Positions 2,733-58,853 of a stretch of DNA of 64,000 nucleotides are shown here, one piece after another; the stretch's first letter is position 1, and the number at the start of each line of letters is the position of its first letter. Under the pieces are notes generated by a model. That model searched no databases and was not told where the DNA came from. It saw only the letters and a list, made by a program, of their open reading frames with translations. The DNA is taken from positions 144,770,001 through 144,834,000 of the forward strand of contig OX597816.1 of assembly GCA_951406725.2 (NCBI GenBank). The letters run 5' to 3'. The DNA comes from Octopus vulgaris. Taxonomy: Eukaryota. Position numbers and translations under genes: made by a program.

Positions 2733-2747
2733 CTTTAGCTGTTGTTG
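2733..2747 (-). CDS. 15-nt micro-exon B' (T-TTAK-G), diverged paralog of B
   Basis: taactaat...aaaag|CAACAACAGCTAAAG|gtgagt; flanks 2580-3300 resemble 30530-31330. Confidence 0.7.
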
Positions 2748-56700: not shown

Positions 56701-58853
56701 TCTAGTATCTTTCAAGTGGTTGGAAATTGTCGTGTACGTTACATCTAATTCAGAAGCCAGCTCTCGAACAGTTGTGCGTGGATTGGCTTCGGCTAAGGCT
56801 CCTAGTGTATCGTTGCTAACATTGGATGGCCGACTACTACGCTTATCATCTTGAAGACTCTCGTCACCGCTAAGAAATTTCTTGAACCACTATTGTACTG
56901 TACGTTCATTAGTGGTTCCTGGGCCAAACGCATCGTTGATATCAAGAGCTTGTTCGGCAGGTTTTCGGCCTAGCTTGAACTGGAATAAGAAAATTGTGCG
57001 AATTTGCTTTTTGTCCATGTTGTATTCAACGTTCCGGAAAAAATGGTCTAATTATTCAAAAAGATTAGATAGTGCGATAACCGGGCTTTAAAATGATATA
57101 TAAAGTCAAAGTAATGTAATGAAAATTAATTTGAAAATAAATCATTTAAAACCAAAATTAAAAATTCCACAAGAACTTTCTTCACAACCAAATAGAAACA
57201 CTCATTCACTGATAGTACAATAAATAGTCGGCGGATACTTACTTGGCACTGGTAATACTGGGACTTGAATTGAAAAGTAAAAATAAGATAATATAGTTCC
57301 TTGTCATAAATATTTCGTATTACAAATATACATACCTATTCGAGATAATGAATGTTTTAATAATTGCATAATGAATACTTGAATACGTTTCCTCAATATT
57401 CTAATAATGATTATACTGATTGTGTCGTGCGTTTCACACACGTAATTTTTGTTTAAAATGTTTTAGAAATGTTCATATACATTTTATTACTTAACATACA
57501 TAGACTTGATGTTCTAAGATATATGTATTAATATAACTGTGAATGAAATTATGTATATATGTATGTGTGCAGAAACTGATAAACATGTAGAGCTATGATA
57601 ATCTTCCAAGTGTGATACATTGAATATAATTTCTGACATCAGAATACATATTAGAATGATTTCACGTGATTATCTGTATAATAAATTAAATAACTGAGTA
57701 CATTCATATCGTTAGCCATGTGCTCTGGTCATGAAATTGGTCTCAGGAAAAATGTTAGTATGCAACAATATTTATGTGTATTTGTTGTTTCAAATATCGA
57801 GGATTTCCATATTTATTTAAACGATCAATAGCTATATAAGAGTGAAACATTTATTGATAACCAATTAAAATGTCTTAAAATCTGAATCTATAGTACTGAG
57901 AATCGTGTCATTCACTGCCGTCGGCCGATAAAGCAGCACACTGTTTTAAGTTTGAAAATGGAAAACATTATCATCTTTTGAATATATTATATTAATGTAA
58001 AAATATGAATTCATTGCACTTCCTAACTCGGCATCAAAGTACGTTTTAATTCTTTTTCAACACGATTAGGCATTATTTCACTATTCAATAATTTATTACA
58101 TTTTAATTATATACTAATTCAATAATACATATCTAGTCTTCCGTTACAACGTGATTCTGAAACTAAAACTGTTCTGACACTAACACTGCCTCGCAATCTC
58201 CGACATTTTCAGAACCATGGAAAATTATGAAGTCTATCCTAGTGCAATAAATTTTACAATGAGTAGTTACAAAATTATATACATACCATTACAAGTTCTT
58301 TTAATTAATTGCTTCGCGATGGAACTAAGAACATTAAAGTTTCTAACTGAAAACACATAATTTCGGCGTGGTGAGCTACCAATAACGTTCAATTCAGACC
58401 GTTTAATTCCTCTGCCAACACCAATAGCAAACACAATGGCGCCTGTTTTTCGTAATTTCAATGCAGCGATTTTAGTTTTTCTGAGACTGAAGGCTTTGCC
58501 ATCAGTTAGAACGATAGCAATATTCGGGACACCTTTTCTATCTCCTGCTCCTCGTCTGAATGACTGTGTCCTCAAGTAGTCAAGAGCTCTATTTGTATTC
58601 GTACCTCCGTGTTTGTACTTTATTCTGCTGATTGCCCTGAGCAAACTCCTCTTGTTATAATACTTATTCATCTTAAATTGCAGTTTGACCTTCCCGCTGA
58701 ACGTAATGGCTCCCACGCGAATTTTGTTTCTACCAATGTTAAAGGATTTCACTATATTTTGTGCAAATCTTTTCACTTTCTTGAAGTTCGTTGATCCAAC
58801 ACTACTAGAATCATCCAAGACGAGCATAACATCAGCAACTGCCTTATCACAAC
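2733..58853 (-). CDS. Multi-exon extracellular protein (partial): 5xVWA - VWD - C8 - TIL - TILa/EGF with micro-exon linkers; FCGBP/zonadhesin/mucin-like
   Basis: GT-AG-bounded exons with compatible phases join into one open frame; domain motifs listed per exon. Start and stop codons not in the window. Confidence 0.88.
4125..4500 (-). mobile_element. 3' end of a second LINE-like family with TAA tail (opposite-orientation copy at ~32900..33170 in each internal unit)
   Basis: gagacctcaagggacaac...catgttggtg is the reverse complement of caccaacatg...gttgtctcttgaggtctc; upstream part encodes a VIVIC.LG-like endonuclease tail. Confidence 0.6.
4795..5335. mobile_element. ~540-bp interspersed repeat embedded in (ATT)n (also 62..225 partial, 18500..19045, 26028..26572)
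   Basis: Shared gagagcag...catcaaagtgacactggggtaaaatatacgaagc...gctgtagcccatcttt at unrelated sites. Confidence 0.8.
5954..5959 (-). CDS. 6-nt micro-exon D (I-T)
   Basis: ttttctctttcat...ccaccaaaag|TAACAA|gtaagt; same tract-spacer-AAG layout as B and C. Confidence 0.5.
7680..7691 (-). CDS. 12-nt micro-exon C (A-PAP)
   Basis: ttttcttttctttcaacatccaaaag|CACCAGCACCAA|gtaagt; phase 1-1. Confidence 0.62.
8606..8900 (+). mobile_element. tRNA-derived SINE
   Basis: A-box-like tggcttaatgg, B-box-like gagttcaattc, then gtgtcgttgagcaagacactttat core. Confidence 0.65.
9459..9630 (-). CDS. TILa/EGF-like cysteine-rich exon (absent from the ORF track)
   Basis: tttttactag|CGA GGT...TGT GTC G|gtaagt; [57 protein letters not shown]; 172 nt, phase 0-1. 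Confidence 0.88.
10449..10642 (-). CDS. TIL domain exon (cysteine-reduced)
   Basis: cgcag|AA TTA AAG TGC...ATG AAA|gtaagt; CPKNMVY...[24 protein letters not shown]; phase 1-0. Confidence 0.92.
11217..11752. mobile_element. MITE/foldback-like element with ~180-bp inverted arms
   Basis: gacgtaacaaatcttacggccgtttcc (11283) is the reverse complement of ggaaacggccgtaagatttgttacgtc (11659); arms ~11217-11400 and ~11570-11752. Confidence 0.8.
11914..12035. repeat. (TA)n microsatellite, representative of many (TA)n, (ACAT)n, (TAG)n, (GA)n and (CA)n tracts
   Basis: Direct reading. Confidence 0.97.
12135..12765. mobile_element. Second MITE/foldback-like element with ~170-bp inverted arms
   Basis: ttactgtgtgattgaccgttattaagacaaaaga is the reverse complement of tcttttgtcttaataacggtcaatcacacagtaa; arms ~12135-12306 and ~12596-12765. 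Confidence 0.8.
13286..13557 (-). CDS. C8 domain exon
   Basis: ttacag|A TGT CAG...AAA TGT A|gtaagt; FKKC...[10 protein letters not shown]...[12 protein letters not shown]...WRKALKC; phase 2-1. Confidence 0.92.
13630..13812 (-). mobile_element. SINE (same family as 17520..17870 and 15850..16350)
   Basis: gagttcaaattctgccgaggtcgactttgactttcatc on the minus strand, recurring at several sites. Confidence 0.65.
14538..14845 (-). CDS. VWD exon 2 (left-hand duplicate)
   Basis: Same translation as 22057..22364; phase 0-2. Confidence 0.93.
15850..16450 (+). mobile_element. Cluster of decayed SINE copies (duplicate at ~23380..23980)
   Basis: Repeated degenerate gaggtcga(c)ttt..tcatc..gataaaata..caaaattgctgg segments. 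Confidence 0.5.
17028..17281 (-). CDS. VWD exon 1 (left-hand duplicate)
   Basis: Same translation as 24558..24811, including GDPH. Confidence 0.93.
17518..17870 (+). mobile_element. Two tandem SINE copies (duplicate at ~25048..25400)
   Basis: caaattccgccgaggtcggctttgccttt and gaggtcgacttttcctttcatc with matching 3' halves. Confidence 0.6.
19442..20691 (-). mobile_element. Decayed mariner (Tc1/mariner, Hsmar1/cecropia-like) transposon
   Basis: ~1.25 kb; imperfect ~30-bp TIRs (ttaagttgtcaagaaagtccttgcggtttt / aaaattccacaagaactttcttcacaaccaaa); DNARPH and [13 protein letters not shown] motifs; stops and frameshifts. Confidence 0.92.
20742..20762 (-). CDS. 21-nt micro-exon A, variant (V-PVLPVT)
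   Basis: As the other copies but CCA>ACA. Confidence 0.65.
21786..21841 (-). CDS. 3' fragment of a VWA exon truncated by the gap
   Basis: Matches 29313..29368 ([18 protein letters not shown]) with the gtatgt donor. Confidence 0.85.
21842..21941. other. Assembly gap (100 N)
   Basis: Run of 100 N, the usual placeholder for a gap of unknown size. Confidence 0.99.
22057..22364 (-). CDS. VWD exon 2 (right-hand duplicate)
   Basis: cacag|GTG AAT GGC...AAG AA|gtaagt; VKFDGNH...[15 protein letters not shown]; phase 0-2. Confidence 0.93.
24558..24811 (-). CDS. VWD exon 1 (right-hand duplicate)
   Basis: tttcag|TT CCT GCT...ATC ACA|gtaaga; [14 protein letters not shown]...FMGTCKYTL; phase 1-0. Confidence 0.93.
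26969..28219 (-). mobile_element. Decayed mariner copy
   Basis: Duplicate of 19442..20691. Confidence 0.92.
28270..28290 (-). CDS. 21-nt micro-exon A
   Basis: Identical copy; joins in frame to VWD exon 1 (A+TT = Ile). Confidence 0.7.
29313..29879 (-). CDS. VWA exon, copy 1 (last before the VWD cassette)
   Basis: ORF 29293..29853; 567-nt phase 1-1 exon. Confidence 0.95.
30681..30695 (-). CDS. 15-nt micro-exon B
   Basis: Identical copy. Confidence 0.7.
32480..32892. repeat. Compound (CTT)n/(ATT)n microsatellite, present in each internal unit
   Basis: Direct reading; length and interruptions vary between units. Confidence 0.95.
33224..33269 (+). ncRNA. Degenerate minimal type-I hammerhead-ribozyme-like motif (copies at 40416, 47686, 54954)
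   Basis: AACAC-CUGAGGA-a-ugcugg..ucaucc-GAAAC-GUU-GUGUU; helix I AACAC/GUGUU pairs, helix II is mismatched. Confidence 0.35.
33555..34060. repeat. Compound (ATT)n/(ATC)n/(GGT)n microsatellite, present in each internal unit
   Basis: Direct reading; copies at ~40750, 48020 and 55290. Confidence 0.95.
34182..35435 (-). mobile_element. Decayed mariner copy (array passenger)
   Basis: Same TIRs, flanks and lesions. Confidence 0.92.
35486..35506 (-). CDS. 21-nt micro-exon A
   Basis: Identical copy. Confidence 0.7.
36530..37096 (-). CDS. VWA exon, copy 2
   Basis: ORF 36510..37070; carries the FSLRK variant shared with copy 5. Confidence 0.95.
37897..37911 (-). CDS. 15-nt micro-exon B
   Basis: Identical copy. 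Confidence 0.7.
41362..42614 (-). mobile_element. Decayed mariner copy (array passenger)
   Basis: Same TIRs, flanks and lesions. Confidence 0.92.
42665..42685 (-). CDS. 21-nt micro-exon A
   Basis: Identical copy. Confidence 0.7.
43709..44275 (-). CDS. VWA exon, copy 3
   Basis: ORF 43689..44249; 567-nt phase 1-1 exon. Confidence 0.95.
45078..45092 (-). CDS. 15-nt micro-exon B
   Basis: Identical copy with aaaag acceptor and gtgagt donor. Confidence 0.7.
48650..49903 (-). mobile_element. Decayed mariner copy (array passenger)
   Basis: Same TIRs, flanks and lesions. Confidence 0.92.
49954..49974 (-). CDS. 21-nt micro-exon A
   Basis: Identical copy with caag acceptor and gtaagt donor. Confidence 0.7.
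50998..51564 (-). CDS. VWA exon, copy 4
   Basis: Same splice sites and MIDAS motifs as the other copies (ORF 50978..51538). Confidence 0.95.
52365..52379 (-). CDS. 15-nt micro-exon B (I-TTVK-G)
   Basis: Branch-like taactaat, pyrimidine tract, AG-free spacer, aaaag|TAACGACAGTTAAAG|gtgagt; phase 1-1. Confidence 0.7.
55939..57192 (-). mobile_element. Decayed mariner copy (array passenger)
   Basis: Same TIRs, flanks and lesions. Confidence 0.92.
57243..57263 (-). CDS. 21-nt micro-exon A (V-PVLPVP)
   Basis: ttttcaattcaag|TCCCAGTATTACCAGTGCCAA|gtaagt; phase 1-1; an internal in-frame CAG acceptor would give 15 nt. Confidence 0.7.
58287..58853 (-). CDS. VWA exon, copy 5 (first in transcript)
   Basis: tttgtag|GT TGT GAT AAG...ACT TGT AAT G|gtatgt; 567 nt, phase 1-1; MIDAS DDSSS, GGTNT, LTDG. 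Private changes QNIVKS and NVLSS. Confidence 0.95.

Follow-up and report, generated by a model that had tools for sequence, protein, structure and literature searches.

Exons of 3-27 nt are commonly called micro-exons. In schistosome micro-exon genes (MEGs), as described in a preprint (bioRxiv 10.1101/2023.06.21.545858), 10-20 very short exons of lengths divisible by three (3n) lie in long introns, code for Pro-rich pieces, accompany an N-terminal signal peptide and give many splice forms. A second group, the eMIC/SRRM4 neural microexons, is marked by small size, frame preservation, long AG-exclusion zones, a CUAAY branch point and neuron-restricted inclusion, and in flies UGC is enriched near the 3' splice site of such exons (PMC8797185). 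At the protein level the gene described here can be compared with FCGBP and zonadhesin; the GDPH motif of FCGBP is reported to be autocatalytically cleaved (PMC8267560). Here we analyse 64,000 nt of the Octopus vulgaris genome (hereafter the window; C3:144770001-144834000 in a 2.8-Gb genome), which carry on the minus strand a part of a large VWA/VWD gene whose inter-domain linkers are encoded by exons of 6-21 nt. The 13 sites of this kind in the window are real spliced exons coding for domain linkers. We consider it probable that inclusion is their default and that they owe their number to tandem duplications, each of a complete VWA-plus-linker unit.

A rule-based scan of both strands, written independently of the site list in the first-pass annotation, required a YAG, 3-39 nt and a scored GT donor, with a pyrimidine tract of at least 13/15 and 20 AG-free nucleotides upstream. 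Its 13 minus-strand matches in the window are exactly the 13 sites that had been listed there as 21-, 15-, 12- and 6-nt exons of phase 1-1 with consensus donors: six of 21 nt, four of 15 nt coding for ITTVK, and one each of 12 nt, 6 nt and 15 nt (TTTAK). All 13 have a 3n length and an open phase-1 reading frame, and their donors read GTAAGT or GTGAGT. The plus strand of the window gave four matches (two distinct), none of them 3n. At the same thresholds, none of 20 control matches (9 on the plus strand of the gene, 11 on both strands of the 65.8 kb upstream) was both 3n and open in phase 1, and 40 block-wise dinucleotide shuffles gave on average 0.75 matches and 0.075 3n-open matches (maxima 3 and 1). 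Candidates of 8 nt (at 23660/16131) and of 37 nt (in each downstream unit) passed a loose scan but are not 3n, are found neither in RefSeq nor among the listed junctions, and were rejected. The exons of the window, from the upstream end of the gene, are as follows.

58287..58853, minus strand: VWA exon 1, 567 nt, phase 1-1
57243..57263, minus strand: 21-nt micro-exon VPVLPVP, family A (scan; identical copy spliced in RNA contigs; RefSeq)
52365..52379, minus strand: 15-nt micro-exon ITTVK, family B (scan; identical copy spliced in RNA contigs; RefSeq)
50998..51564, minus strand: VWA exon 2
49954..49974, minus strand: 21-nt micro-exon, copy 2 (scan)
45078..45092, minus strand: 15-nt ITTVK micro-exon, copy 2 (scan)
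43709..44275, minus strand: VWA exon 3
42665..42685, minus strand: 21-nt micro-exon, copy 3 (scan)
37897..37911, minus strand: 15-nt ITTVK micro-exon, copy 3 (scan)
36530..37096, minus strand: VWA exon 4
35486..35506, minus strand: 21-nt micro-exon, copy 4 (scan)
30681..30695, minus strand: 15-nt ITTVK micro-exon, copy 4 (in RNA contigs its letters separate VWA from the 21-nt exon)
29313..29879, minus strand: VWA exon 5 (PF00092, E 3e-47; DxSxS motif present)
28270..28290, minus strand: 21-nt micro-exon, copy 5, VWA-to-VWD linker (RNA joint 29313>28290, GT..AG ends)
24558..24811, minus strand: VWD exon a, GDPH motif
22057..22364, minus strand: VWD exon b
14423..21841, no strand: 7.4-kb duplicate of 21942-29368 (99.6% identity, 12 mismatches), adjoining the 100-N gap 21842-21941
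20742..20762, minus strand: 21-nt micro-exon in the gap duplicate, VPVLPVT (scan; the last O. sinensis copy is likewise VPVLPVT)
13286..13557, minus strand: C8 exon
10449..10642, minus strand: TIL exon
9459..9630, minus strand: EGF-like exon (weak Pfam EGF_3, below cut-off)
7680..7691, minus strand: 12-nt micro-exon APAP (scan; RNA contigs; RefSeq)
5954..5959, minus strand: 6-nt micro-exon IT (scan; RNA contigs; RefSeq)
2733..2747, minus strand: 15-nt micro-exon TTTAK; the VWA exon to which it is spliced follows 562 nt beyond the left window edge, at L010:9438 (scan; RNA contigs; RefSeq)

The evidence for splicing comes from public contigs of four runs from four studies (X1, X2, X5 and X8), mapped on 28150-30850, where the listing covers 24 of the 44 loose ends and 32 of the 236 pieces; the run records carry no RNA label, and the RNA nature of the runs was inferred from splice joints and exon-only depth. 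There the VWA exon reaches a contig depth of 10^3-10^4 and the bin that holds the 21-nt exon one of 197-342 (three runs); most intron bins stay at 0-20. Runs X1 and X8 contain the joint 29313>28290, which leads from VWA to the 21-nt exon with GT..AG ends, and run X2 shows it as a loose end of 17 letters (three of four runs); a silent variant at the second base of the 21-nt exon occurs in X1 and X8. In run X2 the only listed contig over the VWA 3' end (depth 1672.9) continues into the 21-nt exon, and at the VWA 5' end the only listed contig (depth 1415.2) has the 21+15 nt, the ITTVK letters lying between the 21-nt exon and VWA; run X1 shows the 21-nt exon plus ITTVK ahead of VWA as a loose end. 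For the EGF-VWA linker, contigs were mapped on the initial 69 nt of the VWA exon that follows (L010:9370-9540), and three of four runs (X1, X2, X8) have the 12-, 6- and 15-nt exons in the predicted order before VWA, while runs X8 and X17 hold the complete 12+12+6 linker of the downstream array. Run X5 consists mostly of a diverged paralog, and none of the linker junctions is among its listed rows. The first-pass annotation would have been refuted by cDNAs that always join one VWA exon straight to the next; no such joint is among the junctions listed for the four runs on 28150-30850, linker exons being spliced in instead. Its central claim holds, namely that the inter-domain linkers are built from micro-exons (VWA-21, 21-15-VWA and 12-6-15-VWA in the contigs, in agreement with O. 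sinensis RefSeq). All five distinct micro-exons of the window are thus real exons spliced into mRNA, and with lengths of 6-21 nt and canonical AG/GT sites they lie within the usual limit of 27 nt. A length variant of the 21-nt exon, read from a run X8 loose end at 29881, was rejected as a consensus of two records whose last letters come from the TTTAK route. Low-level intron-retaining contigs were also seen at VWA 5' ends, at 29855-30331 (run X5, depth 220) and L010:9411-9540 (run X2, depth 20).

The same gene has been modelled in O. sinensis as LOC118762594 (XP_036357277-90, "von Willebrand factor-like / zonadhesin-like"). A gene model running from the VWA exon at 29879 to 2733, with one copy of the gap duplicate kept, is open and agrees with O. 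sinensis isoform X1 at 604/607 residues, and a VWA exon of the window is identical to a stretch of a public O. vulgaris predicted protein and 99% identical to LOC118762594. The RefSeq proteins read RTCN-VPVLPVP-ITTVK-GCDK and GKCV-APAP-IT-TTTAK-GCEK, so that all five window micro-exon peptides are already present in public O. sinensis models, and all nine RefSeq isoforms with two upstream VWA domains keep VPVLPVP and ITTVK. The O. vulgaris predicted proteins P0001 and P0002 split the gene in two, contain 0/5 of the window micro-exon types, drop the EGF exons of the downstream array, and shorten the upstream VWA exons or join RTCN directly to GCEK. The O. bimaculoides protein XP_014769910 is without the 19-residue N-terminal linker; because this model is partial, loss of the linker and mis-annotation look the same in it.

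With isoform X1 mapped onto the window and 100 kb on either side, the gene spans about 193 kb of the minus strand, from an ATG at window-equivalent 98112 to a stop near -94995. Outside the window it has 23 further micro-exons of 6-21 nt, of which three lie upstream, two near the 3' end and the rest as 12+12+6 nt in each of six downstream linkers, which brings the whole gene to 35 micro-exons with 456 nt in total (gap copy left out). The unique N-terminal linker runs 36-15-6 nt. Like schistosome MEGs, the octopus gene combines symmetric 3n exons, all of phase 1-1, with a signal peptide and Pro-rich pieces. Unlike in MEGs, the micro-exons only link folded domains, and their 456 nt stand against 6,804 nt of VWA exons alone; because they are so small a share of the coding sequence, we do not regard this as a schistosome-type MEG. 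With eMIC/SRRM4 microexons the octopus exons share size and frame preservation and perhaps the long AG-exclusion zones (34 to >198 nt, at least 34 nt in 9/9 distinct exons); a strict CTAAY motif is present in 5/9 and a looser one in 8/9. However, UGC (TGC) within 50 nt of the acceptor was found in 0/9 distinct exons, the donors are strong and close to consensus, and the host is a matrix-type protein, all of which sets them apart from eMIC exons.

The 13 sites do not represent 13 independent events. Ten of them sit in duplicates of 97.5-99.6% identity, and the number of distinct exons is therefore five. The five VWA-linker units repeat with a period of about 7.2 kb and are 97.5-98.4% identical, introns included; it is likely that VWA-plus-linker units were multiplied by tandem duplication of whole gene segments. 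One site, at 20742-20762, falls within the duplicate flanking the assembly gap, as had been noted in the first pass. The end of a VWA exon recurs in this duplicate together with the 21-nt exon and the two VWD exons; in O. sinensis the VWD is modelled once. The 7.4-kb duplicate likely represents two unmerged haplotypes. Transposase-like broken frames, which we take by motif to be mariner-like, lie in the long intron of each VWA unit and have been copied along with it (27144-27917, 34227-35132, 41407-42311, 48695-49352 and 55984-56641). Reverse-transcriptase-like broken frames, presumably of the non-LTR type, occupy 59735-63998 in the intron upstream of VWA 1.

The cassettes, together with their flanks, form paralogous families found only in this gene (14 and 6 matches genome-wide). 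Family A has exons of 21, 21, 15 and 12 nt, and its 15-nt KPPAP exon begins at the position of the inner CAG of the 21-nt exon. In family B the 15-nt exons start after caaaag and have an inner CAG at +9, and the upstream member at 70299 has the acceptor caaaaa and starts at that inner CAG, which leaves a 6-nt IK exon; the RefSeq reading PIK-SCDK matches it. In all exon copies with an inner YAG (9/9) this YAG is in frame, since a G after CCA or ACA yields an acceptor of phase 1. Alignment of these paralogous cassettes suggests that linker length was changed by acceptor shifts in the DNA. Identity between the 21-nt and 12-nt cassettes is 0.84-0.92 within 50 nt and about 0.5 beyond 100 nt; such sliding-window identity is usable for some pairs only, and we draw no conclusion on selection from it. 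Elsewhere on this chromosome (C3:89.76-89.86 Mb) a paralog carries a single 27-nt xPTMPPPLK exon ahead of every VWA; its acceptor region is similar, and common descent of families A and B with this exon is plausible from the alignments; a point against it is that the families score 63-85 with the 27-nt exon and five control exons reach 29-61, only modestly lower.

We next consider whether inclusion of the linkers is fixed or optional. Strong donors, AG-free pyrimidine tracts of at least 34 nt and branch-point-like motifs would together drive default inclusion, and linker length would be altered mainly in the DNA, by cassette gain or loss, in-frame indels and acceptor slides to an inner in-frame CAG. 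Occasional skipping would then be a side product, tolerated since all pieces have phase 1-1. The listings of five runs contain no skip at the 13 window sites; since contigs drop paths, this absence argues for fixed inclusion only weakly. Other observations weigh against default inclusion or blunt the evidence for it. The contigs give no inclusion levels, lose even major paths and come from runs of unstated tissue; two routes lead into the downstream VWA, of which run X1 shows only one and run X17 only the other. In run X2 a contig of the downstream array, outside the window, reads EGF-12-6-VWA without the second 12-nt exon. Finally, six of 12 O. sinensis RefSeq isoforms skip a micro-exon, namely KPPAP (isoforms X3 and X12), TTTAK (X4 and X7) or IT+TTTAK (X5 and X8). 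As KPPAP sits in unique sequence, a collapsed array does not explain why it is skipped. On the RefSeq skip isoforms, KPPAP, which lies outside the window, appears to be the best candidate for a truly optional exon. The reading APAP-IT-S of isoforms X4 and X7 may be mis-mapped, because a single base separates it from the downstream APAP-II-S junction and the O. sinensis model contains only one VWA-EGF unit, against seven here; the TTTAK-skip isoforms may thus arise from mis-mapped reads of an array collapsed in that model. The run X2 skip contig has a depth of 216 against 7875 for its neighbour (about 3%) and carries one differing letter; judging by the adjacent contigs, which are 34 and 31 nt long, this letter is base 4 of the VWA exon. 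Skip and variant appear to go together, as for one copy or allele. A-to-I editing was ruled out as the source of the variant, the genomic base being G in 12/12 VWA exons.

These observations also bear on the alternatives. The most serious of them, although we would put it somewhat below an even chance, is that particular units or haplotypes lack an exon or its splice sites, which would give protein heterogeneity with no splicing control. It would account for the base variant tied to the run X2 skip, and the silent variant of the 21-nt exon in runs X1 and X8, the VPVLPVP/VPVLPVT variants in the gap duplicate and RefSeq, and the number of VWA units (5+7 here, 2+1 in the O. sinensis model) are in line with copy differences; however, all six downstream linkers in this assembly keep their three exons with intact sites, and the O. 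sinensis unit count may reflect assembly collapse. Regulated optional cassettes, in which tissue or stage control of skipping or of inner acceptors would tune VWA spacing and O-glycosylation, seem unlikely to us. The phase 1-1 pieces would stay in frame in any combination, inner in-frame CAG acceptors exist, in half of the RefSeq isoforms the N-terminal or the EGF-downstream linker lacks a micro-exon, and there is the run X2 contig; but none of the window sites is skipped in the listed contigs, the run X2 skip looks copy- or allele-linked, isoforms X4 and X7 have the ambiguity just described, UGC near the acceptor is absent from the nine distinct exons and most linkers have no Ser/Thr. The first-pass suggestion of optional inclusion has weak support, which comes from the RefSeq isoforms and one minor contig. 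A bolder picture, in which twelve basic VWA domains would be spaced ruler-like by 35 interchangeable micro-exons, with regulated skipping and inner CAGs giving tissue-specific spacing and O-glycans on top of rapid change of unit number between octopus lineages, is slightly more doubtful still. That the sites are chance or relic look-alikes in introns, copied by duplication and never spliced, is refuted by the RNA contigs. It could point to the ten duplicate sites and to the two O. vulgaris predicted proteins that join RTCN directly to GCEK or shorten the VWA exon; nevertheless, the exons are spliced in contigs of at least three studies, with depths of 10^2-10^3 against 0-20 in most intron bins, are present in RefSeq O. 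sinensis, and contrast with 0/20 frame-keeping control matches.

The linkers are 7-12 residues long and contain 0-4 Ser/Thr: none in VPVLPVP, two in VPVLPVPITTVK, four in APAPITTTTAK and none in APAPPPAPII (six linkers), VPLPPAP or the N-terminal linker. The downstream 6-nt exon codes for II where the window 6-nt exon codes for IT. The shared theme is therefore proline and not O-glycan sites. The peptides had been described in the first pass as Pro/Thr-rich, which is right for proline in the 21-nt and 12-nt peptides, but neither of these contains Thr, and the gap copy at 20742 reads VPVLPVT and not VPVLPVP. A tuning of O-glycosylation, also proposed there, is conceivable for ITTVK (2 Thr) and IT-TTTAK (4 Thr) only, VPVLPVP, APAP and the six APAPPPAPII linkers being free of Ser/Thr. 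The Pro-rich peptides may act as stiff spacers between adjacent VWA domains; any O-glycans would be few and confined to ITTVK and IT-TTTAK. They do not form a mucin-type PTS domain, which is a long Ser/Thr-dense stretch, as the linkers here are short.

The encoded product is a large, basic, likely secreted multi-domain VWA/VWD protein of matrix type. Its domain order is signal peptide, 5 VWA, VWD-C8-TIL-EGF, 7 VWA-EGF units, VWD-C8-TIL-EGF and PAN region, and the mature O. sinensis isoform X1 protein has a pI of 10.1 with 19% K+R and 6% D+E. The N-terminus is hydrophobic, MKLSVIAAFAALLALCLIAAG, and the signal peptide was called by eye. Signal peptide and mature start are themselves divided among three small exons, with 31 coding nt in the first and 39 and 18 nt in the others (L017:4082-4112, L017:3035-3073 and L016:9771-9788). 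The VWA exons beside the linkers have 567 nt and phase 1-1. In the first downstream one (L010:8871-9438) there are 568 nt, against 567 in the other 11, and the extra A in a short A run, which shifts the frame, is probably a sequencing error. At the VWD region of the window the Pfam order is VWD, C8, TIL, and GDPH is found in both VWD domains of the gene.

Two GDPH-bearing VWD-C8-TIL assemblies are common to the octopus protein and FCGBP/zonadhesin-like proteins, with 30-45% identity in the best matches. The resemblance goes no further: the octopus protein also has VWA domains, twelve in number, as well as EGF repeats and a PAN region at the C-terminus, and its composition (19% K+R, 6% D+E) is different too. 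The zonadhesin architecture includes MAM domains and FCGBP an IgGFc-binding domain; neither MAM (PF00629) nor IgGFc-binding (PF17517) is among the precomputed Pfam labels of P0001-P0003. LOC118762594 differs from the gene studied here in having 2+1 VWA domains and not 5+7. Closer to home, the octopus paralog at C3:89.76-89.86 Mb (P0099/P0127) is alike in its signal peptide, VWA, EGF, VWD, C8 and PAN and in the phase-1 Pro-rich linker exons before VWA and PAN, and differs in having a single 27-nt linker exon per VWA, not two or three smaller ones. This paralogous VWA-EGF-VWD-PAN gene is adjoined by an inverted partial copy (L021-L031 and L032-L035; C3:89.67-89.86 Mb). VWA matches were scored genome-wide for 150 of 204 candidates. 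At C23:38.04-38.15 Mb, VWA exons form an extended tandem array, a large part of which has a period of about 1,846 bp. Our literature searches found no paper on this gene or its micro-exons. In one supplement of the skin-mucus proteome PMC10138644 there were no matches for six peptides or accessions, and passages in PMC10138644, PMC11431876 and PMC8976471 mention VWA/VWD/zonadhesin proteins only in general terms.

Taken together, this locus offers an RNA-confirmed case in which the linkers of a highly expressed matrix-type gene are coded by chains of tiny exons. It also demonstrates how annotation can fail on such a gene, as in the O. vulgaris predicted proteins all five micro-exon types of the window are missing, along with the EGF exons, and a 193-kb gene is split. 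The cassettes appear to record a simple route of length change, in which a Pro or Thr codon followed by Ala or Val (CCA G, ACA G) supplies an in-frame phase-1 acceptor, with one exon having slid from 15 to 6 nt. If inclusion were regulated, the mechanics of the matrix would be tunable by splicing; the present evidence favours fixed linkers.

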